Origin: Methanomassiliicoccaceae archaeon
Lineage (GTDB): Archaea > Thermoplasmatota > Thermoplasmata > Methanomassiliicoccales > Methanomethylophilaceae
Length of the DNA stretch: 64,000 nt
Assembly (NCBI GenBank): GCA_016284295.1
Contig: JAEEOP010000033.1
Location: forward strand, 7,735 to 71,734
Direction: 5' to 3'
Shown: piece by piece, positions 115 through 29,260 of the stretch
How the letters are laid out: every line of letters begins with the position of its first letter
Numbering within the stretch: position 1 is the stretch's first letter
Program-made: the position numbers and the translations under genes
The notes under the pieces: generated by a model
Seen by the model: the letters and a program-made list of their open reading frames with translations, nothing else
What the model was told of the DNA's origin: nothing
The model's database searches: none

Positions 115-246
115 ACCGTGCTGAACGACAGGTGCCTAATAACTATATCGCTGGTAGCACACATCAGCCATCACTTGTAAGGTTTTTTAATAATCAAAGA
201 ATACGAGCAATCAGAACGGAAGGTAAAGGTCTGGGGGAGTTCTGAA

Positions 247-1920
247 TTGGACGATCTTGTAATCGCATCAGCCATTTTGACGCTACTTGCAGGCATAGGG
301 GTTTTCCTTACAGCCTGCATCATGCTGAGTTCCAATTTGGAGTCCATGAGCAGCGGACGTCTCAAGAAGATGTTCACGAAGGCTTCCAAGAGCAAACTGT
401 ATGGTGTCGGTATCGGTGCCGTAGGTACGGCGGCCATCCAGAGTTCCGGAGCCATGACCGTCATGGTCATCGGATTCGTCAACGCGGGGATCATGGCCCT
501 GCCTCTGGCGGCCACGATCATCTACGGAGCGAACATCGGTACTACGATAACCGCCCAGCTTGCCGCCATCGGTATGTTCAGCGGCAATTCGATATCCCTT
601 GCCCTCATCTTCTCCGCATTCGCCGGTATCGGCGCCTTCGCGATGACCTTCGCCAAGAATGATTCCACCAAGCTCTGGGCCGGTGTCATCACAGGTTTCG
701 GTCTGCTTTTCGTTGGACTCACCATGATGGCATCCTCCATGTCGGAGTTCGCGGAGCTGCCTGAGGTCGTCGAGTTCCTCTCTTCGATAGACAATATCAT
801 CCTTCTCCTGCTGATCGGTATCGGTCTGACCGCGCTCGTCCAGAGCTCGTCGGTCGTGACCACGTTGGCCATCACCATGGTGGTCACCGGGCTCATCAAT
901 CTCGAGCAGGGTATCTATCTGACATTGGGATCCAACATCGGATCGTGTGTCGTCGCCATCATTGCCGGATTCTCCGGAGGGCTCAACGCCAAGAGGACAT
1001 CCGTCATACATCTTCTCTTCAACGTGTTCGGAGTGGTGATATTCGTCATCGCCGGATTCGTCATGGGAACGTTCGGGGTCCAGTACTCGGGTCTCTTCGA
1101 ATCCCTGTTCCCCGGAGCGCCGTCCACCCAGCTGGCCATGTTCCACACGTTCTTCAACGTGGTGACCGTCATAATCATGCTCCCGCTGACCAACAAGCTG
1201 ATCAACCTCGTCGTCAGGCTGGTCCCCGACAAAGGGGAGCCCGAGGAGACCGAGTTCATTCCAAAGCTCCACTTCCTGAACGAGTACATGCTCAGGACCC
1301 CGCCTCTTGCGGTCCAGCAGGTGATGAAAGAGGTACTCAACATGTCCGTCATAGCCATGGACAACTACCGCAAGGCATGCCACATGATCCGCACTATGGA
1401 CTTCTCGAAGGAGAACGAATTCTGCAACAACGAATAGGAGCTGAACTTCCTCAACAAGGAGATCGCCAGGTTCCTGGTCAAGCTGTCAGAGAACAAGCTC
1501 AGCGAGAGGGACCAGATATACATCTCCACGGTGTACCACACCATCTCGGACATGGAGCGCATAGGAGATTATTCCAAGAACATCATGGAGTACGCCAAGA
1601 AGATGGATGAGCTCGGATTCAAGTTCTCAGAGGTCGCACTCCAGGAGACCATGGTCATGGAGGGGCTGATCGATCAGCTCTACGACAAGATCGAGCAGGC
1701 ATACAGCGAATCCAACGAGACCGCTTTGGAGCAGGCGTACGACATCGAGGAGAACATAGACGTCGTGACCGAGGAGATGGCGGAGAACCATGTCAAGAGG
1801 CTCAACGAAGGCGTGTGCACCCTGGATGTCGGTTCGGAGTTCCTTGCGATGACCTCGGATTCCGAGAGGGTGGCGGACCACCTGATCAACATGGGCAAGG
1901 TAATCAGGCTGTACTCCTGA
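247..1920 (+). CDS. Na/Pi cotransporter family protein (NptA-like) with C-terminal PhoU domains; one in-frame TAG at 1435-1437 (probable Pyl)
   Basis: QSSGAMTV and QSSSVVT cotransporter repeats plus GANIGTT/GSNIG motifs; track ORFs 247..1437 and 1531..1920 are in one frame separated only by a TAG (NNE-TAG-ELNFLNKEIARFL...SDMERIGDYSKNI). Confidence 0.88.
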
Positions 1921-2286
1921 TCGGACGTACGCGCTCTTCAGGCGTTTCCCGTTCCTGACCCTGCCGTAGAACATCGCGACCATCACGCAGTCGTCGGGCG
2001 TCAGGTCCCCGAGCTTGTAGTTGAATCTGCTCTTGGAAAGCTTGAACGTGCGGTCGGTCCTGACCGTGGACGTCTTGTCGAGCATCACCTCATATGGATC
2101 GACCAGTTTGATATCCGTCTCCGGATGGTGGCCGTGGGATGTGACCATGAATACTATCAGGTCGTCCCCCTTCTTGTCCAGCACGATGACCGGGCGGTTC
2201 TTCGCTCCCGTGAGGTTGTCGAAGTCGACCTTCGCGTTCCAGACCTCCATCGGTCTCGGCACGGAGGGGTCGCTCTTCAGCTTCAC
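1627..2286 (-). CDS. PemK/MazF-like protein (core ~1920-2286) with an open-frame tail antisense to the Na/Pi gene
   Basis: EVWNAKVDFDNLTGAKNRPVIVL..VFMVTS..STVRTDR pattern typical of the PemK/MazF fold; GTG start 4 nt after the ubiA-family stop. Confidence 0.65.
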   Translation of the reverse strand: MKLKSDPSVPRPMEVWNAKVDFDNLTGAKNRPVIVLDKKGDDLIVFMVTSHGHHPETDIKLVDPYEVMLDKTSTVRTDRTFKLSKSRFNYKLGDLTPDDCVMVAMFYGRVRNGKRLKSAYVRSGVQPDYLAHVDQVVRHPLGIRGHRKELRTDIQGAHAFVEPLDMVLRHLLGHDVYVLLDVVRLLQSGLVGFAVCLLDLVVELIDQPLHDHGLLECDL

Positions 2287-5847: not shown

Positions 5848-6540
5848 TCAGATTATCCTCTGCACATCGGCCTCGACCATCTCAGGGACGTCTCCGTAGA
5901 ACGCTACCTTGCCGCCGATGCAGGCCATGCATCCTTTGACCCCTTGGAGCGATCCTACTTTCTCCAGGGCTTCCGACAGGGAGTCCTCGTCGGTCACGAG
6001 GTTCCCGAGCGCCGTGGCGCAGCAATCTGCGAGGATGACATCGTCGGAGAACACGGTGCACACATTGCTGGAGCCCAGCGATACCGAAGGTCCTATCTTT
6101 GCCGATGAAGAACATATCCCGGTGATGCCGTCGGACGATACCATGAAGGCCACGTCCTTGAGGACGGGGTGGTCCGCGAACAGCCCCACAGGGACCTGAC
6201 GGTCGGAAAGGAACGCGATGTCCCCGCCGTTCTCCACGATGGCCTCCCTGGCGCCCGCTTCCTTCGTCCTTTCAACCGCATGCACGGCAACGGCGCCGGC
6301 GACTCCGGCGAACGGGCCTACGCCGGAGATCTCGGATGCATTGCACATGCGTTGGATGAGGGTGTCGTCATCGGAACTGGCTGGATAGGGTTCGTAGGTG
6401 ATCCTGAAGAAAGGGTCCTCTGCTACTTTTCTCTCGATGATGTCCCTGGCCTCGAATATCGCCTGTTCGGCGACCTTCGCGAAGGGTTCCTCGCAGACAA
6501 TGCTGACGATGGTCTCCTTGTATTGGAAGCGCGTCCTCAT
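5848..6540 (-). CDS. UPF0280 (ApbE-superfamily) protein
   Basis: ATG at 6540 (MRTRFQYKETIV); GVGPFAGVAGAVA, ENGGDIA, GICSSSAKIGPSVSLG, ADCCATALGN motifs. Confidence 0.85.
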   Translation of the reverse strand: MRTRFQYKETIVSIVCEEPFAKVAEQAIFEARDIIERKVAEDPFFRITYEPYPASSDDDTLIQRMCNASEISGVGPFAGVAGAVAVHAVERTKEAGAREAIVENGGDIAFLSDRQVPVGLFADHPVLKDVAFMVSSDGITGICSSSAKIGPSVSLGSSNVCTVFSDDVILADCCATALGNLVTDEDSLSEALEKVGSLQGVKGCMACIGGKVAFYGDVPEMVEADVQRII

Positions 6541-6947
6541 ATGTGCAGGCCGAGGGCGTGGACGGCGCAGCTGTTCAGGCATGCGCCGCATGCGATGCAC
6601 TTGCTGTCGTCGAAGTTGATGAGGAAGGTCTTGGGATCCATGCTGATGCATCCGGTGGGGCAGATCGAGGTGCATGCTCCGCAATTCCAGCAGAGACACT
6701 CGTCGCGGTGGATGCGCTTCTCCAGCTCCTTGATGTCGAAACCGGCCTCCTCCAGCCTCTCCTCGGCCTTGACCAGCTTCTCCTCGTCGCCGACAAGCGA
6801 GAGGATCATGACTCCTGATCCGTCGCCGGAGATCTCCGCCTTCAGGATGTTGGGCCTGAGGTCGAACTCCGATACGAGGATGTACGCTACCGAATCCTGG
6901 ACGTTGGATTCCGTGAAATTGATCTTGAACTTCTTCTCGGTCATCAT
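6537..6947 (-). CDS. NIL-domain / 2x[4Fe-4S] ferredoxin (MA1822-like partner in homocysteine synthesis)
   Basis: N-terminal NIL-like domain (FDLRPNILKA), CWNCGACTSICP and CIACGACLNSC motifs; coupled to the upstream gene. Confidence 0.88.
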   Translation of the reverse strand: MMTEKKFKINFTESNVQDSVAYILVSEFDLRPNILKAEISGDGSGVMILSLVGDEEKLVKAEERLEEAGFDIKELEKRIHRDECLCWNCGACTSICPTGCISMDPKTFLINFDDSKCIACGACLNSCAVHALGLHI

Positions 6948-8101
6948 CAGCACCTCCTCTCCTCGAGCTTGTTGAGCTTCCTCTCCTTGGGGAACGGCAC
7001 ATCAGCGGGTTTGTTCAGCATGAACTCCCCGTGCTCGATCCAGTCCTTGAGCCTGTTGGCGACGTCCCTGGCTCCGGAGTAGGATGACATGGACGAGGTC
7101 CTGATGTGCTTCCCGTTGTACTCCACCTTTCCTGTCCTGAGCTGGGCGTAGCTGTACCTGGCCATGGGCGGTCTGTCCACCGGCTGGCTGTAGTCCACCA
7201 TGTCCGCGAAGATCTGGTCGTCGGATATGGCGCACCTCTCCATGATCTCCTTGTTGAGGATTGGGATGGGAATCCCGATACCGACCGCCATGGAGATCCC
7301 GTATCCGGTGATGTCCAGTCCGCGGACGTACTTGGCGTCCATCTGCTTCATGTCTCCGATGAGGGCGAGTGTCCTGGCCCCTGCGACGGGGACCCCGTTG
7401 ACCTCCTCAACATTGGTCTTGAACTGTGTGCCCGGCCATGCGACGTATCCCTCTCCTCCTCCGAGGAAGATCCTGGTGCCCATACCGATGGTCTCGAGAT
7501 GGGGGTCGTTCAGGAGCGGTGAGAGCTGTCCTGCGGAGCTGTATGTGGCGTTCTTCATCCTGGGCAGGAGCTTTCCCATGTAGGTGTAGATGGTCCTGTC
7601 GGACGTGTTGGTCGCTATCGAGTAGTTCTGATAGCAGTTGCGGGGGTTGTAAAGGTATGCGTCGTTGATGTCGTCGAGTGTGATGTAGGTGTCGATGTCC
7701 TTCCTGACGTAGCAGTCCGTACCCGGACCCCAGGCGTGGAGATGGATCTTCTTCCCTGCAATGAGGTCCTCGATGACGTGGGCGCCTCCGTAGCCGCCTT
7801 TGGAATTGGTGGTGAGCGCAGTCGCACCGATGTAGGTGTCCACGGCGGCCAGTCCTCCGTCCACGGGGACATCGTTCAGCCTGATGTCTGTCATACGGAT
7901 CGGAGGGGACGAATGTCCGAAGTTGACGAACGCTCCAGAGGAACACATGGCTCCGAAAGTCCCGGTCGTCACGACGTCCACTTCTTCCGCTGCCTTCTCC
8001 GCTCCATTGGATCTTACGAGGTCGATTACTTCCTCGGCGGTGTAGACCACCGCTTTACCGGAACGGATCTTCTCGTTGATTTGCTCGTATGTCTTCGGCA
8101 T
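6947..8101 (-). CDS. Homocysteine biosynthesis protein (DUF39 / MA1821-like aspartate-semialdehyde sulfurtransferase)
   Basis: KTYEQINEKIRSGKAVVYTAEE, VDVVTTGTFGAMCSSGA, NPRNCYQNY, LNDPHLETIGMGTRIFLGG. Confidence 0.9.
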   Translation of the reverse strand: MPKTYEQINEKIRSGKAVVYTAEEVIDLVRSNGAEKAAEEVDVVTTGTFGAMCSSGAFVNFGHSSPPIRMTDIRLNDVPVDGGLAAVDTYIGATALTTNSKGGYGGAHVIEDLIAGKKIHLHAWGPGTDCYVRKDIDTYITLDDINDAYLYNPRNCYQNYSIATNTSDRTIYTYMGKLLPRMKNATYSSAGQLSPLLNDPHLETIGMGTRIFLGGGEGYVAWPGTQFKTNVEEVNGVPVAGARTLALIGDMKQMDAKYVRGLDITGYGISMAVGIGIPIPILNKEIMERCAISDDQIFADMVDYSQPVDRPPMARYSYAQLRTGKVEYNGKHIRTSSMSSYSGARDVANRLKDWIEHGEFMLNKPADVPFPKERKLNKLEERRC

Positions 8102-8182
8102 CTGTTCACCTTTATTATGTAATAATCCATTGTTTCGCCATACATATAACTTTAGCCAGTTTGCCACGGGCATATCGGAGCG

Positions 8183-8365
8183 ATGACAATGCCCGACCAT
8201 GATGGCAAGGGACATCTAGAGAGGGAGATGAGGCCGCTGAAGGGCGTGAAGGACAATTACCACAAGACCGTTCTGACGCTCGACAGGTTCGGAATGGGGT
8301 CCGATGAAGGGATAGGGGTGGTCAACGTCATCGATTGGCTGCTCGGGAGACCATCTAAACGATGA
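8183..8365 (+). pseudogene. C-terminal remnant of an AAA_14/DUF4143-type ATPase
   Basis: EREMRPLKGVKDNYHKTVLTLDRFG..GIGVVNVIDWLL matches the typical C-terminus of this family; no ATPase domain upstream. Confidence 0.6.
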
Positions 8366-9859: not shown

Positions 9860-11143
9860 TCATCCGCGGTTCAGGATCGAATCGATGGCCGCAATAGTCG
9901 TCTCCTCTATCCCACACTGTTCTGCGTACTGCCGCCAATCCCCCACAACCCGTCCGGTCTTCTGAAGCACATTCCTGCAGAAGCGTCCGCTCAATCCTAT
10001 GGACTTCCCGAATGACAGGAGATCATCCTCGGTGATGCCTTCGGATTTGCCGCAGACTGTCATCTGATGGCCGCGTAGCCATCTGTTGCCAGGGTTGTAG
10101 GCGAAGGTCAGGTCATACGCCGGCGCAAGGTCCCATACACCATCCCTGTCCATGATGAAGGATATGTTCTTCACATGGTCGTCGCAGTTCATGGCCCCGA
10201 CGTTGAACACCGTCCTTCTGTAGATCTCCTCCATCCCGCTCCTGTGAATCCCCAATCTCCTGGCGACGGATGCGCAGGTCTCGTATCCGCATAGGCACGG
10301 CTCATTGTAGTCGTAATGTCCGATAGCACCTAGCGTCTGCACGAACAGCTTCTTCGCGCCTTCGCGGTCGAAACGCCTGGTCATGAAGTGGGACATCCCG
10401 TCCTTCTTCAATATCCTGCATTCGCTCATATCGATCCCGGCATCCTTGGCCATGAGATGATACGCATATTCGATGAGGGTGTACTGTTTGGGATCCTTCT
10501 CCCCGTGGTCCCCGTTACCCCTGACCTCATCGAACTTGACGAGCCAATGATCCGATCCCGGGGCGGCAAGGGTCTGACCCGACCTGATCTCGCCGGTCTC
10601 CTCATTCAATGCGATCACGGCCTTCGCCCTGGCACCCCCGGCGGATGAGCCGATCTCCAGCATCTGCGCCATCGTGATCCGGTCGATGTCGTATGAGGCG
10701 CTTTCCTTACCGGACAGCACCATCGACGCCAGTTCTGTCAGTTTGGTCACATCGACTTCCGAATCCGGGAAATCCATGTCGGCGGCGGGCACATACTCCA
10801 GGGCTCCCATCCCGCGTCTTCCGGTGTAGCTAAGTCTTTCCAACGGCGACATGCTCCCGACCGGTCTCCCGTTCTGCTTCAGCCAGAGGTCTATGACCGC
10901 ATTGCCGAACCTGTCCGGAAGGGAATCCGCCACAAGCCCAGGAAGGCCGTGGAAGGATGCTGAATTCCCGAGTGCGGGAAATGCGTAGACCCTGTCGGAC
11001 AGAGGCATCATGAGCGGTGCGGGCTCGATGCCACTGCCGATGAAATCCCTGTCGTATTCGAACGTGGGGACGGGATCATCCTCACCCTGATGCAGTATGC
11101 CTATCCTCCTGCCCCACAGATGGACCTCGACGGTGCTGATCAT
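9860..11143 (-). CDS. hipA: HipA-family toxin (Ser/Thr kinase) with N-terminal coupling domain
   Basis: EVHLWGRRIG, DSLPDRFGN, SSAGGARAKA, WLVKFD, FMTRRFDR, NCDDHVKNISF, LAPAYDL. Confidence 0.92.
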   Translation of the reverse strand: MISTVEVHLWGRRIGILHQGEDDPVPTFEYDRDFIGSGIEPAPLMMPLSDRVYAFPALGNSASFHGLPGLVADSLPDRFGNAVIDLWLKQNGRPVGSMSPLERLSYTGRRGMGALEYVPAADMDFPDSEVDVTKLTELASMVLSGKESASYDIDRITMAQMLEIGSSAGGARAKAVIALNEETGEIRSGQTLAAPGSDHWLVKFDEVRGNGDHGEKDPKQYTLIEYAYHLMAKDAGIDMSECRILKKDGMSHFMTRRFDREGAKKLFVQTLGAIGHYDYNEPCLCGYETCASVARRLGIHRSGMEEIYRRTVFNVGAMNCDDHVKNISFIMDRDGVWDLAPAYDLTFAYNPGNRWLRGHQMTVCGKSEGITEDDLLSFGKSIGLSGRFCRNVLQKTGRVVGDWRQYAEQCGIEETTIAAIDSILNRG

Positions 11144-11484
11144 TCCTCATCTCCCCATTTCCATTGCCTGGTCTTGGTCGTTCTCTTCCTGGCGCGCTGT
11201 CTAGGTTTCGTGTTCTCGACGAACGCGGACGGGCGGATGGACTGATCGGGGATCAGTATCTCGAAATTGCCCTGCAGGTCCAAAGCTTCCATAAGTTTCA
11301 ACAGGTTGGAGAGGCCTATGTCATAACCGTTCTCGAACCTCTTGATGGTACTGAGCGACACCATCGATTTCTCGGCAAGATCGGTTTGTGTCATGGGATA
11401 GGATATCCTGTACTGTTTGAACCTTTTCGATAATTCGGATGCGATCTCTGTCGGGTCAGAGGTTGTGGTGATTTTCATTGACAT
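11140..11484 (-). CDS. XRE/HTH antitoxin-like regulator (HipB-like)
   Basis: MTQTDLAEKSMVSLSTIKRFENG HTH; ATGA overlap with the hipA start. Confidence 0.85.
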   Translation of the reverse strand: MSMKITTTSDPTEIASELSKRFKQYRISYPMTQTDLAEKSMVSLSTIKRFENGYDIGLSNLLKLMEALDLQGNFEILIPDQSIRPSAFVENTKPRQRARKRTTKTRQWKWGDEE

Positions 11485-16937: not shown

Positions 16938-18554
16938 TCAGAACGACAGCCTGAGGTCGTCGTACTTGTACACTTTCTGGGGGCAGCTGAACTGGCATCT
17001 GTAGCATGCGGTACCGAGGCAGTTCTTGGTCTTGACCACGATCTTCTTGTCCTCCTGGACGGTGAGCGCGTGCTCGGGGCACTCCTTCTCGCACTTCTTG
17101 CACCCGGTGCAGCCTTCCATGTATCCGGTGAGCTCGGTACCGATGTCGTGGAGGATGTACAGTCCCCTCTCTCCCAGGTCGGGAATGTCACGCTGTACGA
17201 TTCTGTGGACCGTGGGCACGCCTTTCGGCCTGGGGAGCTCCTGGATGCCTGCGATGGCGTTGTTCCTGTTGTACATCTCCATGCTCATGCCCTCGTCACA
17301 CACGGCCAGCTCCTGGGTGTAGATCTGCTCGAAGATCTTGTCGCCTGCGAACATGATGTGGTTGGCCCTGATTCCGTTGGCGATGTCCTGGAGGGTGTCC
17401 AGGAGCTCGGGGTTCCTGAGGATGTCGGTGGCCATGGCCAGCGAGGTGTTACCGTACTGGTAGATGGTGTTGCATGACGGCGGCAGGAGACCGACCTCCC
17501 TTGCCTTCACAGCATCCACATAGGTTCCGGATGCCCCGGCCATGTACATGATGTCGAGGTCGCTGAACTTGATGCCCGCATGCTCCAGGAGGGTGAAGTG
17601 TCCCGCCCTCATCGCTCCGATCGCCTTCATGGCCTCGGAGATGTCATGCGAGTCGATGTAGATGCCGTCCTGCAGGTGGAGCAGTCCGTCGGAGGTCGTG
17701 AGCTTCCCCTTCTTCCAGAGGTGGCAGTCCAGTGCCGCGGCGACGGCGGCGATGACTCCGGTACCGGTGATACCGGTGGCCTTGCCGCTCATCGGCCCTT
17801 CGGGGGTGACGGACTCCAGGCCGAAGTCACATCTGGCCCCGTTCTCGGGGATGATGTCGTCGTTCAGGACCTTGCATATGTATTGGAAATCATATTCGAG
17901 ATCGGATATGGCGCCGGGTCCAGCGAGCATACCGTATTTGATGGACTGCCCTTCCATGGCCGGTCCCGCCGCCGCGGATCCCGTGTAGATGTCGTCCCCT
18001 ATCTTCAGGGCCATCTCGGCGTTGGTACCGTAATCCGTGACGAGGCAGTTCTCCTTCTGCTCGAGGAATCCGCTCTTGTACATCATGGCCAGCGCATCGG
18101 CGCCGATCTCGTGCCTGATCGCCGGGGGAACGCAGAGCTCGCATCCATCCCTGACATTCAGTCCGACATCCACTGCCGAGAAGACCCCGGCATCCCTTTT
18201 CTGCGCCACTATGCCTCTGGCCTTGTGCGCGTTCTCGCCCGCGAAGGCCAGGTCGTCCACCGGGATCCCTTGGAAGAGCGACAGCTGTATCGGGTTACCG
18301 CAGATGCTGACCCTCTCGACCTTGTTCAGGTCCACGCCGAGGGTGGCAATGAGCTTGTTGACGGTGTCGATCAGGATCTTGTGCGCCGTGTCCGTCCCTG
18401 CGTTTATGCAGAACGTTAGATGATCCATGATGTTCGCTCCGGGCAGCGGATGACATTCCGTGACGGAGGTTGATAGTATCTTGCCGTTCGAGAGGTCGAC
18501 GGCGTGCCCTCTTGTACCGCTCGTACCGATATCCAAAGAAATTCCTATACTCAT
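16938..18554 (-). CDS. ramA: Methyltransferase corrinoid protein reductive activase (RamA/RamM, ASKHA ATPase with C-terminal ferredoxin)
   Basis: SLDIGTSG, DYGTNAEMAL, SAAAGPAMEGQ, C-terminal CTGCKKCEKECP and CLGTACYRC; AGGTGG RBS before ATG at 18554. Confidence 0.92.
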   Translation of the reverse strand: MSIGISLDIGTSGTRGHAVDLSNGKILSTSVTECHPLPGANIMDHLTFCINAGTDTAHKILIDTVNKLIATLGVDLNKVERVSICGNPIQLSLFQGIPVDDLAFAGENAHKARGIVAQKRDAGVFSAVDVGLNVRDGCELCVPPAIRHEIGADALAMMYKSGFLEQKENCLVTDYGTNAEMALKIGDDIYTGSAAAGPAMEGQSIKYGMLAGPGAISDLEYDFQYICKVLNDDIIPENGARCDFGLESVTPEGPMSGKATGITGTGVIAAVAAALDCHLWKKGKLTTSDGLLHLQDGIYIDSHDISEAMKAIGAMRAGHFTLLEHAGIKFSDLDIMYMAGASGTYVDAVKAREVGLLPPSCNTIYQYGNTSLAMATDILRNPELLDTLQDIANGIRANHIMFAGDKIFEQIYTQELAVCDEGMSMEMYNRNNAIAGIQELPRPKGVPTVHRIVQRDIPDLGERGLYILHDIGTELTGYMEGCTGCKKCEKECPEHALTVQEDKKIVVKTKNCLGTACYRCQFSCPQKVYKYDDLRLSF

Positions 18555-18602
18555 CGTTACCACCTGACCTATCTGGTCTTTCTTATGTTTTTGTAATAGA
18601 AC

Positions 18603-18625
18603 CTAACATAAAAATGGTATGTTAG
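18603..18625. promoter_or_regulatory. Inverted repeat in ramA-mtaC intergenic region
   Basis: CTAACATA-N7-TATGTTAG perfect 8-bp arms. Confidence 0.5.
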
Positions 18626-18715
18626 ACAAGGCAACTTTTACCTGATGTTTAGTCAATTTTTTTGTTGTCATTGTCAATACTATATAAAACTTATATCCAA
18701 AGTATTTAAAGTTAC

Positions 18716-18777
18716 TGGGATATTTCATCCAACCAACCATTCCATTAAATAGTTTAGAAATACATCCAACTAACCAT
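18716..18777. promoter_or_regulatory. Operator-like repeats upstream of mtaC
   Basis: CATCCAACYAACCAT at 18726-18740 and 18763-18777; the first copy lies within TGGGAT-N5-ATCCAA. Confidence 0.55.
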
Positions 18778-18820
18778 AGGGAGTTCACGGCAGCCCCCTA
18801 GATAATAAGGAGGAAAATCA

Positions 18821-19600
18821 ATGATAGACTACTCTAAAGTAGACTTTTCTAAGATCCTCAAGCGTTACGACGTTGAGGGTCAGAACGAAATGACACCTGA
18901 GTCCGTGGCCAAGGCAATGCTGCCGAAGGACCCCGTCCTGTACAAGGTCGCCGAGTGCGTCCTGTACATGAAGTTCAAGGACGTGGGACCCGCGACCGCC
19001 GAGGCGCTGAAGACGAAAGATGCTCTTGATATCATCAACAACGGACTCGTCGTCGGAATGGAGTGTGTCGCGAAACTGTACGCAGAGCACATCTACTACC
19101 TGCCCGAGATCATGATGGCCGCAAAGACTATGGAGATCGGAATCGCACTCGCAGAGAAGCAGATCCCCGGTGGAAGGACGACAAAGGGAACCGTCGTCAT
19201 GCATGCCGCCGAAGGAGACCCCCACGACATCGGTAAGAACATCGCCGCCGTCATGATGAGGTCTTCCGGATACACCGTCGTCGACATGGGAAAGGATGTC
19301 GCAGTGGACGATGTCGTCGCCAAGGTGAAGGAGATCAAGCCCTTCATGGTGACCGGAACCGCGCTCATGACGACCACCATGACAGCATTCCCCCGCGCCG
19401 CAGCGAAGCTCGTCGCAGCCGGAATCAACATCCCGTTCATGGCAGCCGGAGGAGCAGTCAACAGGGACTTCTCGGAGTCCTTCGACCTCGGAATCTATTC
19501 CGAGAAGGCGCCTCAGACCCCGCCCATTGCGGACAAGATCCTTGAGGGATACGACTGGAGAAAGATCAGGGAAGAGTGGGACCACATCGTAGGAGAGTGA
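18821..19600 (+). CDS. mtaC: Methanol corrinoid protein
   Basis: EGDPHDIGKNI B12-binding motif (DxHxxG), GTALMTTT, AAGGAV; AGGAGG RBS. Confidence 0.93.
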   Translation: MIDYSKVDFSKILKRYDVEGQNEMTPESVAKAMLPKDPVLYKVAECVLYMKFKDVGPATAEALKTKDALDIINNGLVVGMECVAKLYAEHIYYLPEIMMAAKTMEIGIALAEKQIPGGRTTKGTVVMHAAEGDPHDIGKNIAAVMMRSSGYTVVDMGKDVAVDDVVAKVKEIKPFMVTGTALMTTTMTAFPRAAAKLVAAGINIPFMAAGGAVNRDFSESFDLGIYSEKAPQTPPIADKILEGYDWRKIREEWDHIVGE

Positions 19601-19605
19601 TTGTT

Positions 19606-20997
19606 ATGGCAAAGTACACAAAGATGGCATACGGCAGTGCGGAAGAGATGGTATTCGGACACGCGAAGGAGCCCGTCTCTTACGGTTTCGGAATCAAGGT
19701 CGGAGCAGGCAGGGTCATCCCCGAGCTGAACTACGGACCCAGGCCCGGATCCGAGGCGACACCCGAGAAACTCAGGAAGGAGTACGTCGACTACATCTCC
19801 AAGGATGTCCTCAACAGATGCGTCACCCTCGGATTCCCCGACGTCCAGCTGGAGACCGAGTGGATCTCCCAGATGGGAGACCCCAAGATGGCCACACCCG
19901 TGGTCGAGGGCCAGAAGGCAATCTGCGAGAAGTACTACGAGGAGTACGGACTGAACTGCGCCGTGAGGCAGACAATCCCCGACCAGCGTGAGGCGGAAGA
20001 GGGATACAGGCCCGGAATGGGCGGAAAGCACAGCTACCCCGAGCACCTGTTCCAGTGTGCTGAGGTCGCCTGTGAGAACGGAGCGGATGTCCTCTCGTGC
20101 GAGACCCTCGGAGGAAAGGAGCTCGGAGACTACGCGACCACGAACGGAGACATCGTCGCATTCCTGTTCGGAATCGGATACCTCGGTTCCATCGACATGG
20201 AGTACGTCTGGAAGCAGTTCGTCGATATCGCCAAGAAGAACAAGGTCATCGCCGGAGGAGACACCAACTGTTCCGGAGCCAACACCTCGATGTTCATGGC
20301 CGGCGGAATGCTGGACCAGGATGTCCAGAGGACCTACTCCGCGGTCACCCGTGCGATCTCCGCCGCAAGGACCCTTGTGGCATGGGAGCAGGGTGCATCC
20401 GGACCCGACAAGGACTGCGGTTACGAGGGACCCATCTGTAAGGCTATCGCAGGAAAGCCCTGCGCACAGGAGGGAAAGAACTGTCAGTGCGCCCACGCCG
20501 ATCTTCAGGGTAACCTGATGGCACAGGTCTGCGACCTCTGGTCCAACGAGTCCATCGAGTACCACCCCGAGTTCGGAGGAACCTCCGTCCAGTGCTGGAT
20601 GGGAAGCCTCGGATACGAGGTGGCCCTGATGAACACCGCCATCCAGACCGGCAAGCAGAAGGACCTCAGAGACCTCTACATGATCACCGACCGTGAGAGG
20701 GGACCCGAGGGACACATCCTCGCATACGACAACGCATATAAGATCGGAGAGGCTATCGTCTCTGAGGGCAACAACTACTACCTCAGGGCCAAGGCCGCCG
20801 GACTCACCGCCGCGAAGCTCATCAAGGACCACAACGACTCCAAGGAGCTCCAGCTGACCAGGAAGCAGAGGGAAGTCCTCGACTCTATCATCAAGGACCT
20901 CGAAGCTCTTCCGGATGATGAGGACAAGTTCTTCGAGTACTGCTGCAAGAAGTACGCGGACGTGCCCAACTTCAACCTGAAGAACTACGGTCTTTGA
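19606..20997 (+). CDS. mtaB: Methanol:corrinoid methyltransferase
   Basis: MAYGSAEEMVFGHAKEPVSYG, ENGADVLSCETLGGKE, GDTNCSGANT, GPDKDCGYEG, WSNESIEYHPEFGG. Confidence 0.95.
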   Translation: MAKYTKMAYGSAEEMVFGHAKEPVSYGFGIKVGAGRVIPELNYGPRPGSEATPEKLRKEYVDYISKDVLNRCVTLGFPDVQLETEWISQMGDPKMATPVVEGQKAICEKYYEEYGLNCAVRQTIPDQREAEEGYRPGMGGKHSYPEHLFQCAEVACENGADVLSCETLGGKELGDYATTNGDIVAFLFGIGYLGSIDMEYVWKQFVDIAKKNKVIAGGDTNCSGANTSMFMAGGMLDQDVQRTYSAVTRAISAARTLVAWEQGASGPDKDCGYEGPICKAIAGKPCAQEGKNCQCAHADLQGNLMAQVCDLWSNESIEYHPEFGGTSVQCWMGSLGYEVALMNTAIQTGKQKDLRDLYMITDRERGPEGHILAYDNAYKIGEAIVSEGNNYYLRAKAAGLTAAKLIKDHNDSKELQLTRKQREVLDSIIKDLEALPDDEDKFFEYCCKKYADVPNFNLKNYGL

Positions 20998-21017
20998 TAG
21001 AAGGTCTAAACTTCAGA

Positions 21018-21039
21018 TCCGGCGGGAACCCCCGCCGGA
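21018..21039 (+). terminator. Stem-loop after mtaB
   Basis: TCCGGCGGG-AACC-CCCGCCGGA perfect 9-bp stem. Confidence 0.6.
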
Positions 21040-21066
21040 CGACTTCATCAGAGGAGGTAGACTGAT

Positions 21067-21564
21067 ATGTCTGAATTCAAGCCATTGGATCCAACGGCAT
21101 GCGGATTGTTCCTGGTGGCAGTGGTGTCATTCCCTCTCGCGATCGTCAATCTGATCGATGGGCAGGTCGGACCTTCGAGCGATTTCTTCACGATAATAGG
21201 CGCACTGATCCTTGTCGTGGCGCTCCTGGCCTACAGAGCGGAGAGCAATTTCGGATTCACGGTGTTCACATTGGTCGGGGCGGCCGTGCTGCTGACCGGA
21301 CTGGGGATCGGACCCTGGGAGGACATAGCGTTCACGCTGACCTTCCTGCTGGCCATCATATGGTCCTTGAATGTGAAGGCTCCGAAAGCATTGACGATAA
21401 TCTGTTTTACCACCGCCTTGGTCTTCCTGACCGTAGGTCTCTCCGGCATAGTCGGAGGGGACTATTGGCATTGGTTGATAGGAATCGCGGCGCTGTTGAA
21501 CTTCATCTTCAACATCTATCTGTCGTTCGCACTTGCAATGGACGGTAAGATCAAGGTCTTCTGA
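21067..21564 (+). CDS. GPR1/FUN34/YaaH (SatP-like) small membrane transporter
   Basis: PLDPTACGLF resembles the NPAPLGL signature; ~6 TM helices; strong GGAGGT RBS. Confidence 0.6.
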   Translation: MSEFKPLDPTACGLFLVAVVSFPLAIVNLIDGQVGPSSDFFTIIGALILVVALLAYRAESNFGFTVFTLVGAAVLLTGLGIGPWEDIAFTLTFLLAIIWSLNVKAPKALTIICFTTALVFLTVGLSGIVGGDYWHWLIGIAALLNFIFNIYLSFALAMDGKIKVF

Positions 21565-21579
21565 TCCCGTCCCTCAAAC

Positions 21580-21598
21580 AGGTCCCTTCATGGGACCT
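21580..21598 (+). terminator. Hairpin after SatP-like gene
   Basis: AGGTCCC-TTCAT-GGGACCT followed by a pyrimidine tract. Confidence 0.5.
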
Positions 21599-21737
21599 CC
21601 TTCTCCTTGTTCAGAAGGGGCCGTCGGCATGCGGCCCCGTCATCCACGGCGATGGTCGATGATTTTTCCGATAATTCGACATACGTCGTACATGCTGGCA
21701 ACAAGCCAATAAATAGAGTCCGCTTTACGGTTCTCAG

Positions 21738-24353
21738 ATGACATCATCAAATCCACGTCCAGTGGTCCCTCTGGATTCTTCCGAACTCGATATCGGTCTG
21801 GTCGGAGGCAAGGGGATCAACATAGCCAAGATGATCTCGAGCGGATTCAGCGTGCCACCGGCGCTCTCTGTCACCGTGGACGCATACGACATGTTCCTGG
21901 ACATAACCGGTCTCAGGGGCAGGATCGCCGAGATACTGGCTAGGACGGATTTCGATGACGATGCGGATCTCAACGCATCATCCGACAGGATACGTTCGCT
22001 CTTCACCGAGGTGCCCCTTCCGGAGGAGGAGATCTCAGACCTCAAGAAGAACTTCTTCAACCTCGAAGGCGAGTACTTCGCGGTCCGCTCTTCCGCCGTG
22101 GCGGAGGACCTGGCCGATGCCAGCTTCGCAGGTCAGCAGGACACCTATCTGAACGTGAGGAAGCATGACATCATCTCCAGGGTCCTGGCCTGCTGGGCGT
22201 CGTATTGGAACGCAAGGGCGATGAAATACAGGCATGATGCATCGAAGGACCATCTCTCGCAGGGTATGGCAGTCGTCGTACAGAAGATGGTCAAATCCGA
22301 CATCAGCGGGGTCATGTTCACATCCGATCCGGTCACCGGTGAGGAGCATGTCATAATAGAGGCGTCATGGGGTCTCGGAGAATCGATAGTGTCCGGGCTC
22401 GTCACCCCCGACAGCTACAAGGTCTCGTACGACGGGAAGGTCCTGTCCGCCGAGGTCCACAACAAGGAGATCGGGTTCTTCCTCGTCGACGGGGAGAACA
22501 GGCAGGTCCCCATCGATCCCGACAAGGTCTCGGTGCGCTGTGCGGACGATACTGTGCTGAAAGCGATCGCAGCCGAGGGACTCAAGCTCAGGGACCACTT
22601 CGGATGCCCCCAGGACATCGAATGGGCCGTCGAGGCCGGCAAGGTGTACATACTCCAGTCGAGGGCGATCACGACCCTGCCGGACATGTCCGAGAAGGAC
22701 GACATCCTCTGGTCCAGGGGATACGGCGACGAGTACTGGGCGGATGCCACCACACCGATGTTCTATACGGTCATGGGAAAGCTCCTGACCGATTACGTGA
22801 ACCACGAGGGAGCGCACATGATGGGCTACAAGGATCTGGAGTCCGGACCGCTCACGAAGCTCCACAAGTCGAGGGTGTACTTCTCCGCCGTCGTGTTGGA
22901 GAGGATCTTCGCCCACTATCCCAAGTTCATACGTTCGAAGGAACTGCTCGAGTACTTCCCCCGCAGCGAGCAGGAGAGGATCTCGAAGTACCCCAACGAT
23001 TTCCTCGGAATGATCAAGTCGCAGCTCTGTCTGCTCATCCGCGACAGGGACGGGATGATCTGGAGGACGGACAAGGTCTACAGGAAGTGGGCAGAGGGAT
23101 TCCTCAAGCTGTGCGACGAGTTCGATGCCACCGATTTGACCAGAGTATCCGACAAGGAGCTGGCCGAGTGGTACGGCAGGATTCGCGTGGGATCCACCAA
23201 GCACTACCAGCTGATCCGCTACGGTATGGTGTCGCATTCGATCATGACCAATCTGCTGGTCAAGAACTGGTCCATCAAATGGTTCAAGGATGACGGTTCC
23301 GTCTATGCCGGACTGATGTCCGGGCTGGAGGACAACAAGACCGTCGAGACCAACAAGGGATTCTCCGACCTGGGCGTGGCGCTCAGGGCCGACGAGGATG
23401 TCAGGAAGAAGGCGGAGTCCATGGATGCCGAGGAGTTCGTCGAGTGGCTCCAGACATCCGACGTCCCCTTCAAGGATGTCTATAACGGATTCATAAAGGA
23501 GTTCGGGCACAGGTCCGGTACAAGAGAATTGAACGCCCTCAGGTGGGCAGAGGATCCCGATTACGTGATGTCCATGGCCTTGCAGATGTGCGATTCCGGT
23601 GTAGATCTCAGGAAGGAGTTCGAGAACGGTATCCAGCGCAGGAAGGACACGGAGGAGATGGTTCGCAAGGAGCTGGGTTTCTTCAAGAGAGCCATACTGT
23701 TCAAGGTGCTGCAGTATGCGCGCACATACCTCATATTCAGGGAGAACCAGAGGTTCTACCTCGACCATATGATGTACAGGAACAGGCTGATCTTCCTCGA
23801 GCAGGGAAGGAGGATGAAGGACATGGGCCTGATCGATGACAGGGAGGACATATTCTTCCTGGAGGACACCGAGGCCCTGGCGATCCTCAACGGAGGGGAC
23901 GCGTCCGATGCGAGGGCGGTCATCGCCCCCAGGAAGGCGGAGTTCATGAAGTACCGCGACAGGCTCCCGCCGAAGTTCCTGCTGAACGGGGTCGACTTCG
24001 ACGACGACCCCATCTCCCAGGGGGACACCCTGGTGGGTGCGGCGTCCAGCCCTGGAACGTACAGGGGAAGGGTCCGCGTCATCAGCGACGTCAGGGATCT
24101 GGGCCAGGTCGAGAAGGGCGAGATACTTGTCACGAGCAACACCGATCCCGGGTGGACGGTGGTGTTCTCGAAGCTGGGCGGGCTCATCACCGAGACAGGA
24201 GGAATCTTATGTCACGGTGCCGTCATATCCCGCGAGTACAGGATACCTGCGGTCACAGCGGTCAAATCAGCGACCTCCGTGCTGCACACAGGGGACTTGG
24301 TCTCCGTGGACGGCAGCAAGGGAGAGGTAACGATACTGGAGGAAAAGGAATGA
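21738..24353 (+). CDS. PEP-synthase/rifampicin-phosphotransferase-like enzyme (PPDK_N + central substrate domain + His swivel domain)
   Basis: VGGKG, AVRSSAVAEDLADASFAGQQDT, PQDIEWA, ILQSRAIT; C-terminal TDPGWT and GGILCHGAVISREYRIPAV. Confidence 0.88.
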   Translation: MTSSNPRPVVPLDSSELDIGLVGGKGINIAKMISSGFSVPPALSVTVDAYDMFLDITGLRGRIAEILARTDFDDDADLNASSDRIRSLFTEVPLPEEEISDLKKNFFNLEGEYFAVRSSAVAEDLADASFAGQQDTYLNVRKHDIISRVLACWASYWNARAMKYRHDASKDHLSQGMAVVVQKMVKSDISGVMFTSDPVTGEEHVIIEASWGLGESIVSGLVTPDSYKVSYDGKVLSAEVHNKEIGFFLVDGENRQVPIDPDKVSVRCADDTVLKAIAAEGLKLRDHFGCPQDIEWAVEAGKVYILQSRAITTLPDMSEKDDILWSRGYGDEYWADATTPMFYTVMGKLLTDYVNHEGAHMMGYKDLESGPLTKLHKSRVYFSAVVLERIFAHYPKFIRSKELLEYFPRSEQERISKYPNDFLGMIKSQLCLLIRDRDGMIWRTDKVYRKWAEGFLKLCDEFDATDLTRVSDKELAEWYGRIRVGSTKHYQLIRYGMVSHSIMTNLLVKNWSIKWFKDDGSVYAGLMSGLEDNKTVETNKGFSDLGVALRADEDVRKKAESMDAEEFVEWLQTSDVPFKDVYNGFIKEFGHRSGTRELNALRWAEDPDYVMSMALQMCDSGVDLRKEFENGIQRRKDTEEMVRKELGFFKRAILFKVLQYARTYLIFRENQRFYLDHMMYRNRLIFLEQGRRMKDMGLIDDREDIFFLEDTEALAILNGGDASDARAVIAPRKAEFMKYRDRLPPKFLLNGVDFDDDPISQGDTLVGAASSPGTYRGRVRVISDVRDLGQVEKGEILVTSNTDPGWTVVFSKLGGLITETGGILCHGAVISREYRIPAVTAVKSATSVLHTGDLVSVDGSKGEVTILEEKE

Positions 24354-25219
24354 GCGGAGAATTGGATTGGAACGAGAGCTATTACTTCAACTTCTTCGAT
24401 GCGAAGCAGGCCCTCACGGCCTTCATGCGCATCGGCAACAAGCCTAACAGGAACGAGAAATCCGTGTTCCTATTCGTGATGAACAAGGACGGCGTGTTCG
24501 GCATCAGGAACACCGAGCCCTGCGACGAGAACAAGACCCTCTGCTCCGGACTCAGGTTCGAGAACAAGGGCGATGTCTGGAAGATCACCTACAACGGCCC
24601 CCTGTTCGACATGTCCAAGGAGCCTGTGCCCATCATGTCCTCGCTGGACATCGACTGGAGACCCGTCAACCCCGAGATGGACTACCACGACTGCGTGGAT
24701 GCCGCCGGGGAGGCCCTGTCCGCGAAGACCGCCTCGGAGCACTTCGAGCAGTTCGGAGTCGCCACCGGAAAGGTCGTCGTCGGTGATTCCTCATTCCAGG
24801 TCGAAGCGACGGGAGAGAGGGACAAGAGCGAGGGCGTCCGCGACTGGGGATCCCCCAAGATGTGGCTCTGGCTCAACTCCGTCTACGGCGCGGATCTCGG
24901 ATGGAACGCCACCAAGCTGTCCACGCAGATGGGGGATGTCGATGCTGGATTCGTCGGGACCAAGGACTGCAACGATCCCGTCGTCAAGATCGATATCGAC
25001 CTGGACTACGACGGTGCTATACCCAAGTCCTACAGGATGACCATGCATGGCAAGAGCGGCAAGTCCTACGATGTGGAGGCCAAGATCCTCAAGTACGCCC
25101 AGCTTCCGATGCAGGGCAGCAAGGACATGATGCTCATTGAGACCATCTCGCAGACCGTCATGGACGGCCGCACCGGTTTCGGAATCGCCGAGCTCCTGGT
25201 GCCCTCCAAGAGGGAGTGA
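24350..25219 (+). CDS. Uncharacterised beta-rich protein (DUF7064/7065- or AttH/CrtC-like), translationally coupled to the phosphotransferase
   Basis: ATGA overlap at 24350-24353; WNESYYFNFFD..RIGNKPN, HFEQFG..G....G, GERDKSEGVRDW motifs. Confidence 0.7.
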   Translation: MSGELDWNESYYFNFFDAKQALTAFMRIGNKPNRNEKSVFLFVMNKDGVFGIRNTEPCDENKTLCSGLRFENKGDVWKITYNGPLFDMSKEPVPIMSSLDIDWRPVNPEMDYHDCVDAAGEALSAKTASEHFEQFGVATGKVVVGDSSFQVEATGERDKSEGVRDWGSPKMWLWLNSVYGADLGWNATKLSTQMGDVDAGFVGTKDCNDPVVKIDIDLDYDGAIPKSYRMTMHGKSGKSYDVEAKILKYAQLPMQGSKDMMLIETISQTVMDGRTGFGIAELLVPSKRE

Positions 25220-25352
25220 AACACATTTGGGGCCCACGCCCCGTTTCATCCATCCACATGGTATCCTCCTGGATACTGGCTATGTTTTATCCTTGAAGAT
25301 TCGGACCGCATCAGTCTTATAATGTCGGATGCCGATTCGAATACTGATCCAA

Positions 25353-25700
25353 ATGACCGATTGCAAAGTATGCGTGGATGCGGGTGTCTGCAAGATGAAG
25401 ACCATCATCACGGCCACTACCAATGACATGGGCCTGGTCGATCTCCATATCAAGAGCGATTGCCCGAACATCTTGAAGATGTCGTGGAGGATGGAGCCTG
25501 TCAGCCCGTATGCGGAGGTCGAGTCCGAGTTCTACAAGTCCGAGGTATACAAGTGGGCCCAGGAGACCCCTATACCCCATACGGCATGCCCTGTGCCTTC
25601 AGCGATCATCAAAGCAATAGAGTACGCCGGGGATCTAGGCCTGAAGCGCGACGTGTCCATCAGGTTCATTGACGACGATTCAGAGGCCGGGATGGACTGA
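25353..25700 (+). CDS. DUF6951-family small Cys-containing protein
   Basis: VDAGVCKMKTIITA, SDCPNI, HTACPVPSAIIKAIE, RDVSIRF. Confidence 0.7.
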   Translation: MTDCKVCVDAGVCKMKTIITATTNDMGLVDLHIKSDCPNILKMSWRMEPVSPYAEVESEFYKSEVYKWAQETPIPHTACPVPSAIIKAIEYAGDLGLKRDVSIRFIDDDSEAGMD

Positions 25701-26102
25701 TCAGATCGGCAGCTTGGTGCAGTTAGGCACCACTTTGTAGTTGTACTCGCAGAAGTAGACCTCTATATTCTGCCCCTTGTACTTCTCGAAGACCAGATGC
25801 CAGTTCTGGACGGGTATGTTGCCGCATATGACGGCGTTCACCTTCTTCCCCTCCGATAGCCTGTCGCCGATGAAGGCCTCCAACTCCCTGGGGAAGGTTA
25901 TCCTGTTGTCGGCCAGGAACTCGCGGTCCACCTTCAGGATTATGGAGTCAGGCTCCTGCCTTGCGATTTCGTCCAGGACTATCTGGATGAGAGTCTCCAT
26001 CCCTTCGGTCTTTATTCCGGATATGGCGGTGGGCTCCTTGGTGGCAACGAATCCTGCCACCAGCGGTCTTGGGTCGGTCTCGGGCGGTGTGGCGAAAACC
26101 AT
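25701..26102 (-). CDS. Hypothetical protein, tandem paralogue B
   Basis: 133 aa; collinear similarity to 26112..26513 (PPETDPRP, RLSEGK, G.IPV..W, CTKL). Confidence 0.75.
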   Translation of the reverse strand: MVFATPPETDPRPLVAGFVATKEPTAISGIKTEGMETLIQIVLDEIARQEPDSIILKVDREFLADNRITFPRELEAFIGDRLSEGKKVNAVICGNIPVQNWHLVFEKYKGQNIEVYFCEYNYKVVPNCTKLPI

Positions 26103-26111
26103 GGTATCACA

Positions 26112-26513
26112 TCATATGGTGAGCTTGGTGCAAAGCGGCACCTGACGGCAGGCCGCGGCGCAGTAGAAGACCTGCAGGTCCCTTCCTTTGAACTTCTGCA
26201 GCTCCAGGTTCCATCCGGAGACGGGAATGTCCCCTGCGATGATGAGGTTCAGCCTCTTCCCTTCGGACAGCCTCTTCTCAATGTAACCGGAGAAGTCCCT
26301 TGCGAACGTGATGTCCTCGTCGGACATCAGGTCCCTGTCCATTATGACTATGTTGGATCCGGGCTGCTGTCTGCTCAGCTCGTCGACGACGATTTGCATC
26401 AGGGCTTCCGTGCCTTCGGCCACAAGGCCTGCAAGGGCCTTGGCGTCATCATTGGATATGAATTCGGATACCTTCGGACGCGGGTCCGACTCAGGGGGAC
26501 AGGAGTTGACCAT
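26112..26513 (-). CDS. Hypothetical protein, tandem paralogue A
   Basis: 133 aa; same length and shared motifs as 25701..26102. Confidence 0.75.
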   Translation of the reverse strand: MVNSCPPESDPRPKVSEFISNDDAKALAGLVAEGTEALMQIVVDELSRQQPGSNIVIMDRDLMSDEDITFARDFSGYIEKRLSEGKRLNLIIAGDIPVSGWNLELQKFKGRDLQVFYCAAACRQVPLCTKLTI

Positions 26514-26580
26514 CTTCGCACCTGAGAAAAGTAATGGGTGAAGGCGTTTAAAACATGGGTGGAGGTCCTCAGGCCCCAGC

Positions 26581-26718: not shown

Positions 26719-26835
26719 TCTATACGCCTGCTCCTTGAATCCACGCACCCACGATAAATGTTGCCATCGGAAGGCCCCTATGTGAATCGGCATCAGTATG
26801 ATTATTATCGGCGATGGGATTCATCGCCCGTTAAC

Positions 26836-27831: not shown

Positions 27832-27846
27832 TGGCATCCGATACGG

Positions 27847-29183: not shown

Positions 29184-29260
29184 ATCAGGGCCTCCTCTGG
29201 GATGTCAGGACATCATACATGCCATTCCGATGGGGGTCATGATATAAAAGTGGGAATAGG

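Follow-up and report, generated by a model that had tools for sequence, protein, structure and literature searches.

An in-frame TAG, very probably read as pyrrolysine and conserved across lineages, in a Na+/phosphate cotransporter-PhoU gene of gut Methanomethylophilaceae

Reading of the amber codon TAG (UAG in the RNA) as pyrrolysine (Pyl) in proteins other than methyltransferases has already been published for the Methanomethylophilaceae. In 'Ca. Methanomethylophilus alvus', where TAG accounts for 1.6% of stops, 16 non-methyltransferase Pyl proteins were predicted (Borrel 2014; PMC4153887), and 46 genes with in-frame amber codons were reported for ISO4-H5 (PMC5011839). In M. alvi and M. burtonii, proteomics found Pyl at every TAG that could be detected, and a Genetic Code 34 was proposed (Kivenson 2024; bioRxiv 10.1101/2024.09.30.615893). 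The same work places in 'Category 1' those genes in which both sides of an in-frame TAG are homologous to one and the same known protein and the extension exceeds 15 amino acids (aa), and it describes non-methyltransferase Pyl sites as nearly always singletons of one genome or genus. For M. acetivorans, where long and short products occur, a Pyl-containing read-through sensor has been proposed (Shalvarjian 2025; PMC12626013). Here we describe a gene for a Na+/phosphate cotransporter with a C-terminal pair of PhoU domains, interrupted by a single in-frame TAG, in a 64,000-nucleotide stretch of contig JAEEOP010000033.1 from a Methanomassiliicoccaceae archaeon; this whole stretch is called the window below. 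What is unusual is the protein family and the retention of the TAG in at least ten lineages. The Na/Pi cotransporter-PhoU protein is absent from the M. alvus table (PMC4153887) and from the ISO4-H5 list (PMC5011839), and in the literature outside Kivenson's supplementary list of 1903 predicted Pyl proteins we found no relevant paper linking pyrrolysine with PhoU or with a phosphate cotransporter.

The gene is made up of the following parts:
233-239, plus strand: Shine-Dalgarno-like GGGGGAG, read from the sequence, 7 nt before the TTG start
247-1434, plus strand: codons 1-396, with the SLC34/PNaS-type Na+/phosphate cotransporter membrane domain, a linker, and PhoU repeat 1 as far as the start of its helix 2
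1435-1437, plus strand: in-frame TAG, codon 397, a probable pyrrolysine; the same codon in ten lineages
1438-1917, plus strand: codons 398-557, with the remainder of PhoU repeat 1 and the whole of PhoU repeat 2
1918-1920, plus strand: TGA, the gene's true terminator; the proteins of relatives end at the same point

The frame that opens with the TTG at 247 holds 557 sense codons up to the TGA, with the one TAG (in the context AAC GAA TAG GAG CTG) and no other stop. A first-pass annotation of the window had claimed that the membrane domain and both PhoU domains share one frame broken by the TAG alone, and both the open reading frame (ORF) and Pfam confirm this. The membrane domain matches PF02690 (Na_Pi_cotrans) in two stretches (E=2e-44, 151.4 bits against a cut-off of 29.1), and the tail matches PF01895 (PhoU) in two more (E=3.3e-18, 66.3 bits against 23.5); the best PhoU stretch, which is the first (residues 364-449), runs across codon 397. 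NCBIfam NF037997 (Na/Pi symporter) gives 165.9 bits on the N-terminal part against a cut-off of 50, TIGR00704 gives 188.7 bits and so stays under its cut-off of 210.1, and TIGR02135 (phoU_full) matches the C-terminal part at E=2.1e-14. The family profile aligns with both repeats of SLC34A2 (structures 9z60 and 9z64), and its residues 357-550 match the free-standing PhoU proteins 1T72, 4Q25, 1XWM and 2I0M, with 1T72 aligned over 193 residues. The two Na_Pi_cotrans repeats carry QSSG/QSSS motifs, as would be expected of an SLC34/PNaS cotransporter, and the two predicted three-helix-bundle repeats with E/DxxxD motifs make the tail a PhoU pair.

Bacterial proteins of the Na/Pi cotransporter family that carry a C-terminal PhoU pair are of the E. 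coli YjbB type. The window's gene is like these proteins in domain order, length, QSSS repeats and E/DxxxD motifs: 110 other orthologues are single, collinear proteins of 551-571 aa. Unlike our gene, which has a stop codon at 397, these orthologues are stop-free at that position and hold N, K, E, D, R and other residues there. Gene callers split the locus in all records, into a protein of 393-403 aa and a 'PhoU (weak)' protein of 111-159 aa. Stop triplets make up about 3% of the codons in the window's non-coding frames, at which rate 160 codons would stay open past a real stop with a chance of about 0.008, the PhoU homology not yet counted; the open codons and the homology together exclude chance. 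Thus, with Na_Pi_cotrans upstream, PhoU across and downstream, and 160 codons after the TAG, the gene has the make-up of Category 1.

The codon is shared widely. When orthologues were aligned at this position, a check that the first-pass annotation had proposed, the TAG was found at the identical codon in 10 of 10 lineages with DNA, each of which has exactly one in-frame TAG. These lineages are the window, four GTDB species genomes (L001-L004) and five metagenome contigs (L083-L087), all gut or rumen Methanomethylophilaceae, with 76-93% aa identity and saturated synonymous sites. After the TAG, 157-160 codons are intact and collinear in all ten, ending ...GKVIRLYS, and nine protein clusters (82-99% identity) end exactly at the TAG (...C[NE]NE). 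Synteny is kept in relatives as well, in the order CitMHS, transporter gene, PemK-like ORF, UbiA, a hypothetical gene and Tmk.

Pseudogenes are classically recognised by a lone in-frame stop, and a nonsense mutation or a miscalled base might in principle have inactivated the PhoU tail. L081, a record with an identical protein, is of no help against a miscalled base: it matches the window at 100% over a 5005-nt overlap, is not independent of it, and was excluded as support. However, positions 1435-1437 are unchanged in independent contigs of three other runs, namely X8 (DNA), X14 (RNA) and X9 (a 31-kb contig at 97.6% identity). The assembly error that the first-pass annotation had named as a possible refutation, with reads showing GAG, is therefore not borne out, and a shared-pipeline artefact is implausible because the relatives come from ENA, JGI and NCBI sources. 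In the metatranscriptome X14, a 1738-nt contig covers 229-1966 and so holds the whole ORF with short leaders as one RNA. Furthermore, the ten lineages share the TAG with equal selection on both sides of it, and the marks of a pseudogene (relaxed selection, further stops or frameshifts, loss in relatives) were not seen. We regard the chance that the tail has been inactivated, or that the TAG is an error, as negligible.

Selection on the two sides of the codon was compared by the ratio dN/dS (omega), taken as the mean Nei-Gojobori value over the 45 pairs of the ten lineages; an earlier set used five lineages. Mean omega is 0.115 upstream of the TAG, 0.069 in the 31 codons right after it and 0.116 in the remaining downstream codons, with dS about 1.1 in each part. 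The first-pass annotation had called the sequence after the TAG undecayed and had proposed that selection be computed there; the absence of frameshifts and extra stops, together with purifying selection that shows no relaxation, agrees with that description.

These values also bear on whether the locus holds two genes, with a 396-aa transporter ending at the TAG and a separate PhoU-like protein starting downstream. The split made by gene callers in every record is in keeping with such an arrangement, as is the existence of free-standing PhoU proteins such as 1T72. Against it, no in-frame start after the TAG is conserved among the ten lineages: candidate positions vary from one lineage to another, and in L084 the first 39 codons hold none. 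Nowhere in the gene is dN/dS lower than in the 31 codons ahead of the first start that the window could use. In addition, the split would fall inside a PhoU helix, and the orthologues without a TAG are all single proteins of the full length. We rejected re-initiation of a separate PhoU protein on the unconserved starts and the low dN/dS after the TAG, and we consider the presence of two genes very unlikely. Because no start is conserved, separate initiation of PhoU is not the conserved mechanism and the ribosome must read through the UAG; to judge by sequence comparison, then, the downstream part must be translated by read-through.

A stem-loop of the PYLIS type directly 3' of the UAG was looked for and not found. 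RNAalifold finds no conserved RNA structure 3' of the TAG (consensus -6.5 kcal/mol, with almost no covariation), and the single-sequence fold after the TAG has z=+0.48 against shuffles. This absence of structure agrees with the published view that PYLIS is dispensable for UAG recoding (bioRxiv 10.1101/2024.09.30.615893).

The position of codon 397 in the PhoU fold can be described in some detail. Alignment to Aquifex PhoU 1T72 sets NNE-O-ELNFL opposite KGD-D-TIDLL. E396 is invariant in the family and forms, with N/D400, the first PhoU E/DxxxD motif (E396-x-x-x-N/D400), so that the Pyl codon is position +1 of this motif. Structure was read from the AlphaFold model of the homologue P0001 (75% identical; mean pLDDT 77.5), in which helices span 353-384, 390-415, 421-456, 463-489, 492-522 and 527-557. 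Codon 397 maps to helix 390-415 (pLDDT about 90), which is the middle one of the three in the first PhoU bundle, and a low-confidence flexible linker lies at 329-337, about 50 residues before it. Because the TAG stands inside a PhoU helix, a product stopped at codon 397 would, on this model, end in a broken bundle, away from any domain border.

Stop-codon usage in the window offers a further line of evidence. Scoring with a codon-usage model built from the 21 longest ORFs gave 61 ORF-based gene calls, of which 52 end in TGA, 7 in TAA and 2 in TAG. The two TAG-ended calls are the transporter and a second read-through candidate (TAG at 27619-27621), and there are no TAG stops among the other approximately 59 genes. 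The first-pass annotation had stated that the coding sequences it checked end in TGA or TAA, and this holds for 59 of the 61 calls, the remaining two being the read-through candidates. When TAG is treated as sense, these two are the only TAGs inside coding sequence, and all other in-frame TAGs lie in 5' leaders with a negative coding score. The triplet itself is not rare, with 370 occurrences in 57,315 off-frame codons compared with 199 for TAA, and the flanks of related loci show the same stop-codon pattern. Published medians put TAG at 22% of stops in archaea that lack Pyl and at 4.1% in Methanomethylophilaceae that have it (PMC12626013); by our own calculation, zero TAG stops in about 59 genes has a probability of about 4e-7 (0.78^59) at the former rate and of about 0.08 at the latter. 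Within the window, internal TAGs predominate and TAG terminators are absent, which is the pattern of Genetic Code 34. A third long TAG-ended ORF, at 60457-61071 on the plus strand, was rejected as the antisense shadow of a minus-strand gene that has its own ribosome-binding site and signal peptide.

Homologues are labelled Candidatus Methanomethylophilaceae, the G+C content of the window is 52-60%, and near-identical sequence occurs in many sheep and bovine gut metagenomes. We take the host to be a ruminant-gut member of the Methanomethylophilaceae and, with mtaCB, a methyl-reducing methanogen. The methanol methyltransferase cluster occupies 16938-20997:
16938-18563, minus strand: RamA-like corrinoid activator
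18821-19600, plus strand: MtaC
19576-20997, plus strand: MtaB

Contigs of the mtaCB region reach depths of 1000-2400 in the X14 metatranscriptome, compared with 16 for the transporter.

The machinery for Pyl is common among the relatives of this host. PylS is abundant in the family, and the M. alvus PylRS sequence matched cluster P0241 at 100%. At a human-gut locus the genes have their usual layout, namely mtmC, mtmB, pylT, pylS, pylB, pylC, pylD and ramA. A scan of metagenomes recovered about 20 species-level PylS lineages, with 84-95% aa identity to the query PylS P0312, and these were found in the ruminant projects that also yielded relatives of the window. One such lineage, L096, carries mtmC, mtmB, pylT, pylS, pylB, pylC and pylD, and the two halves of its mtmB align on either side of a gap, as in TAG-split mtmB elsewhere. 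Two contigs of run X9 (depth 96.3 and 76.7, about 97.5% identity) represent the window's genome, and no second long relative was found there at 80% likeness or above on window positions 20001-40000. In that run the mtmB-pylT-pylSBCD region of L096 is covered by a single 31.7-kb contig, about 83% identical and sequenced to a depth of 81.1. Given its equal abundance and the lack of a competitor, this pyl contig likely belongs to the window's genome; the evidence is of the kind used in binning and falls short of proof.

Several points weigh against the decoding of this TAG as Pyl in the window's genome. First, we found no pyl gene, tRNA-Pyl or methylamine methyltransferase in the 64-kb window with ARAGORN, Rfam and Pfam on about 50 ORFs. 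Second, tblastn of PylS/B/C/D and MtmB/C against the window and L001-L087 returned only MtaC and RamA paralogues. Third, the link between this genome and a pyl operon consists of co-abundance in a single metagenome. Fourth, some Methanomassiliicoccales are without pyl genes, and Pyl-minus genomes of Methanomethylophilaceae are mentioned in the literature (PMC12626013). Fifth, UAG is ambiguous in M. acetivorans, where it yields long and short products (PMC12626013), and some termination is thus possible at codon 397. Sixth, the lineage of P0001/L082 has replaced the TAG with AGG, from which it follows that Pyl is not indispensable at this position.

Alternatively, the UAG might be read by means other than Pyl, through another suppressor tRNA or through near-cognate decoding to Gln, Tyr or Lys. 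The window has no tRNA with a CUA anticodon, and the identity of the residue at codon 397 is deduced from the codon, both of which leave room for such decoding. However, Pyl is the sole natural sense decoding of UAG described in the archaeal literature surveyed (bioRxiv 10.1101/2024.09.30.615893; PMC12626013), and proteomic searches in M. alvi assisted by de novo sequencing found no other residue at TAG (bioRxiv 10.1101/2024.09.30.615893). The co-abundance in X9 of a contig with pylT-pylSBCD and the window's genome also speaks against decoding by such other means, which we judge to be highly improbable.

The conservation of the TAG in ten lineages, the purifying selection after it and the need for read-through (omega 0.069-0.116, no conserved start), the absence of TAG terminators and the proteomic demonstration in this family that TAG is Pyl together give strong, if indirect, support to translation of the codon, most probably as Pyl. 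We are thus confident, though short of certain, that codon 397 is read as pyrrolysine in a full-length, 557-residue fusion of Na+/phosphate cotransporter and PhoU. In the mechanism that we propose, Pyl-tRNA(CUA) would decode the UAG as pyrrolysine to give the full-length protein, in a host that would have essentially given up TAG as a terminator after the manner of Genetic Code 34. Two parts of this mechanism are inferred: Pyl as the residue inserted at codon 397, and the location of the pyl genes in the same genome. Two broader claims of the first-pass annotation have fared well: that Methanomassiliicoccales decode UAG as Pyl, which the family proteomics of M. alvi bears out, and that a protein outside methanogenesis probably contains Pyl here, which the conserved TAG, the selection and the stop usage support.

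The history of the codon can be traced in outline. Among 137 sequences, the column of codon 397 is one of the family's most variable (N 50, K 29, E 19, D 12, R 4, plus A, T, Q, V, I and S). In a neighbour-joining (NJ) tree of the N-terminal part, all TAG sequences group together, with the non-TAG P0001/L082, whose codon is AGG (Arg), nested in the group or sister to it; the next outgroups have GAG (L007) and Asp (P0004). A single origin of the TAG followed by retention is the simplest reading of this tree. The first-pass annotation had proposed that Pyl replaces a Glu. Such an origin (GAG>TAG) is plausible and the nearest outgroup, with its GAG, fits it, but the column is highly variable, and AAG (Lys) and CAG (Gln) are equally one step away. 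The AGG of P0001, for its part, suggests an AAG intermediate somewhere in this history. Neighbouring genes are 64-85% identical among members of the TAG clade, and those of L007 are similarly close (66-81%), by which measure the clade would be of roughly genus level. On this reading, a single event close to the root of the clade would have given rise to the TAG, at a family-variable position of surface type beside the invariant Glu of the first E/DxxxD motif, and the codon would since have been kept like an ordinary constrained residue.

Whether this retention is exceptional depends on the comparison that is made. The NJ tree of the ten lineages has a length of 4.8 substitutions per site at 4-fold sites; the ten agree at just 4 of the 158 conserved-prefix 4-fold sites (2.5%), whereas the T of the TAG is unchanged in every one of them. 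Nearly all 4-fold sites have changed, and the codon has therefore not merely escaped mutation. A fairer control uses family columns that are at least as variable, of which 10 of 50 (20%) likewise show no change in the clade, or 22 of 76 (29%) at a slightly looser cut. Special selection on the TAG, suggested by the 4-fold control, is weakened by the column control, and we do not claim it; Pyl here behaves, as far as these alignments can tell, as an ordinary, moderately constrained residue.

The same facts frame the possibility of a dual-output switch, raised by the first-pass annotation, in which UAG 397 would act partly as a stop and partly as a Pyl codon and the ratio of PhoU-less to full-length protein would report the supply of Pyl-tRNA, and with it methylamine or lysine status. 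The TAG has been retained over the 4.8 substitutions per 4-fold site although a single change of its T to A, C or G would turn the codon into one for Lys, Gln or Glu, residues found at this column elsewhere in the family. Precedent exists in the M. acetivorans Pyl protein RdmS, which has long and short forms, and in a proposed Pyl-containing sensor of read-through (PMC12626013), and aRF1 is kept in all Pyl archaea (bioRxiv 10.1101/2024.09.30.615893). On the other side, the TAG lies within helix 390-415 of the P0001 model, well past the linker, where the short form would be a broken bundle, and retention of this degree is ordinary among equally variable columns. Moreover, no conserved RNA structure follows the TAG, the TAG-spanning peptides detected in M. 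alvi all carried Pyl (bioRxiv 10.1101/2024.09.30.615893), and one lineage (P0001/L082) has changed the codon to Arg. The helix-internal position and the ordinary conservation weigh mildly against a switch, which we think unlikely.

Also unlikely is the idea that Pyl397 is a functionally selected residue, or that the UAG itself is selected, in the PhoU regulatory module. By one route, the bulky, electrophilic side chain of Pyl beside the invariant Glu of the motif may alter the tail's gating of the transporter. By another, competition between Pyl-tRNA and release factor may couple regulation of the phosphate transporter to methylamine or Pyl status. If this were true, codon 397 would be one of very few physiologically relevant Pyl sites outside the methylamine methyltransferases.

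Returning to Pyl decoding without such a special role, the transporter resembles the Category 1 proteins and the M. alvus set in that its TAG is flanked by homology and followed by an extension of more than 15 aa, in a genome of the Methanomethylophilaceae with few TAG stops. It differs from most published non-methyltransferase Pyl sites in being present in at least ten species-level lineages, probably still of about one genus. The tRNA-His guanylyltransferase Thg1 of M. acetivorans is also of the housekeeping type, and its Pyl too stands at a variable, non-catalytic site where relatives have ordinary residues. Its Pyl is described as 'appearance by neutral evolution' in the passage that cites it in bioRxiv 10.1101/2024.09.30.615893. 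Unlike that neutral case, the transporter TAG has been retained over a deep radiation and behaves as a constrained residue. RdmS, a sensor kinase, is similar in that its TAG lies inside a regulatory domain and truncation removes the regulatory part; its long and short forms were shown experimentally, however, whereas the transporter is known from sequence, and the window's genome seems far more depleted in TAG stops than Methanosarcina.

A better analogue of Thg1 is the second read-through candidate of the window:
26758-27831, plus strand: membrane-anchored Peptidase_C26/class-I glutamine amidotransferase (GATase) gene, with TAG at 27619-27621

The TAG of this gene falls between the catalytic Cys (GICRG) and the His/Glu of GVQYHPE. 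P0121 (331 aa), its nearest homologue at 97% identity, carries Ser in place of the TAG, and a 97%-identical contig of run X1 reads TCT. To judge by these two relatives, the GATase TAG, which lies at a variable column, is of recent and strain-specific origin; we found no independent assembly that carries it. About 2.4 kb before the window's start, in the same genome, an acetyltransferase gene (L081, 4933-5475) has a TAG near the point at which its orthologue in L087 ends, followed by 12 codons and a stop. This TAG is a short-extension case of 'Category 2' and is ambiguous, as it may be either a stop or Pyl.

Our findings have practical consequences for the annotation of such genomes. Because public records split the gene, phosphate-uptake capacity and its regulation are mis-described across a clade of rumen methanogens, and the case shows that these genomes need gene calling with TAG as sense. 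A transporter-regulator fusion is added to the list of Pyl proteins, and with it one more essential-type gene that would tie these methane producers to the Pyl machinery. The gene also offers a convenient test case for the role of Pyl outside the methylamine methyltransferases and for partial termination at UAG in Methanomethylophilaceae.

Orthologues of the transporter, with 53-59% identity, also occur in many metagenome-assembled genomes of gut bacteria, including Bacteroidales, Lachnospiraceae and Christensenellales (loci L009-L080), and they are interleaved with Methanomassiliicoccales sequences in the NJ tree. This interleaving suggests either inter-domain transfer in the gut or mis-binned contigs. 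At L007, the transporter gene is only 64% identical to that of the window, while the neighbouring genes are close to the window's, as given above.

Several other genes of the window deserve mention, the first of them convergent with the transporter gene:
1627-2286, minus strand: PemK/MazF-like toxin ORF
6537-6953, minus strand: NIL-ferredoxin gene
6947-8215, minus strand: homocysteine-biosynthesis enzyme (HcyBio, E=5e-150), beside the preceding gene
9860-11484, minus strand: HipA-like kinase toxin gene (HipA_C and Couple_hipA, 427 aa)
36988-39948, minus strand: 986-aa fusion of a PQQ/beta-propeller-like N-terminal part and an FecCD-type ABC permease

The PemK/MazF-like ORF overruns antisense into the PhoU-coding region, by 294 nt in the window and by 33 codons ending in TAG in L086. 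In L085 and L087 it ends with a TGA adjoining the transporter's stop, where the window and L086 have CGA. A small overlapping ORF at 11140-11484, preceding the HipA-like gene, may be a candidate antitoxin. The cluster of the 986-aa fusion (34-41 kb) also holds a second FecCD permease, an ABC ATPase and a periplasmic binding protein, and a further pair of binding protein and FecCD lies at 11.8-14.1 kb. The HcyBio and NIL-ferredoxin genes are both expressed in X14, at a depth of about 32.

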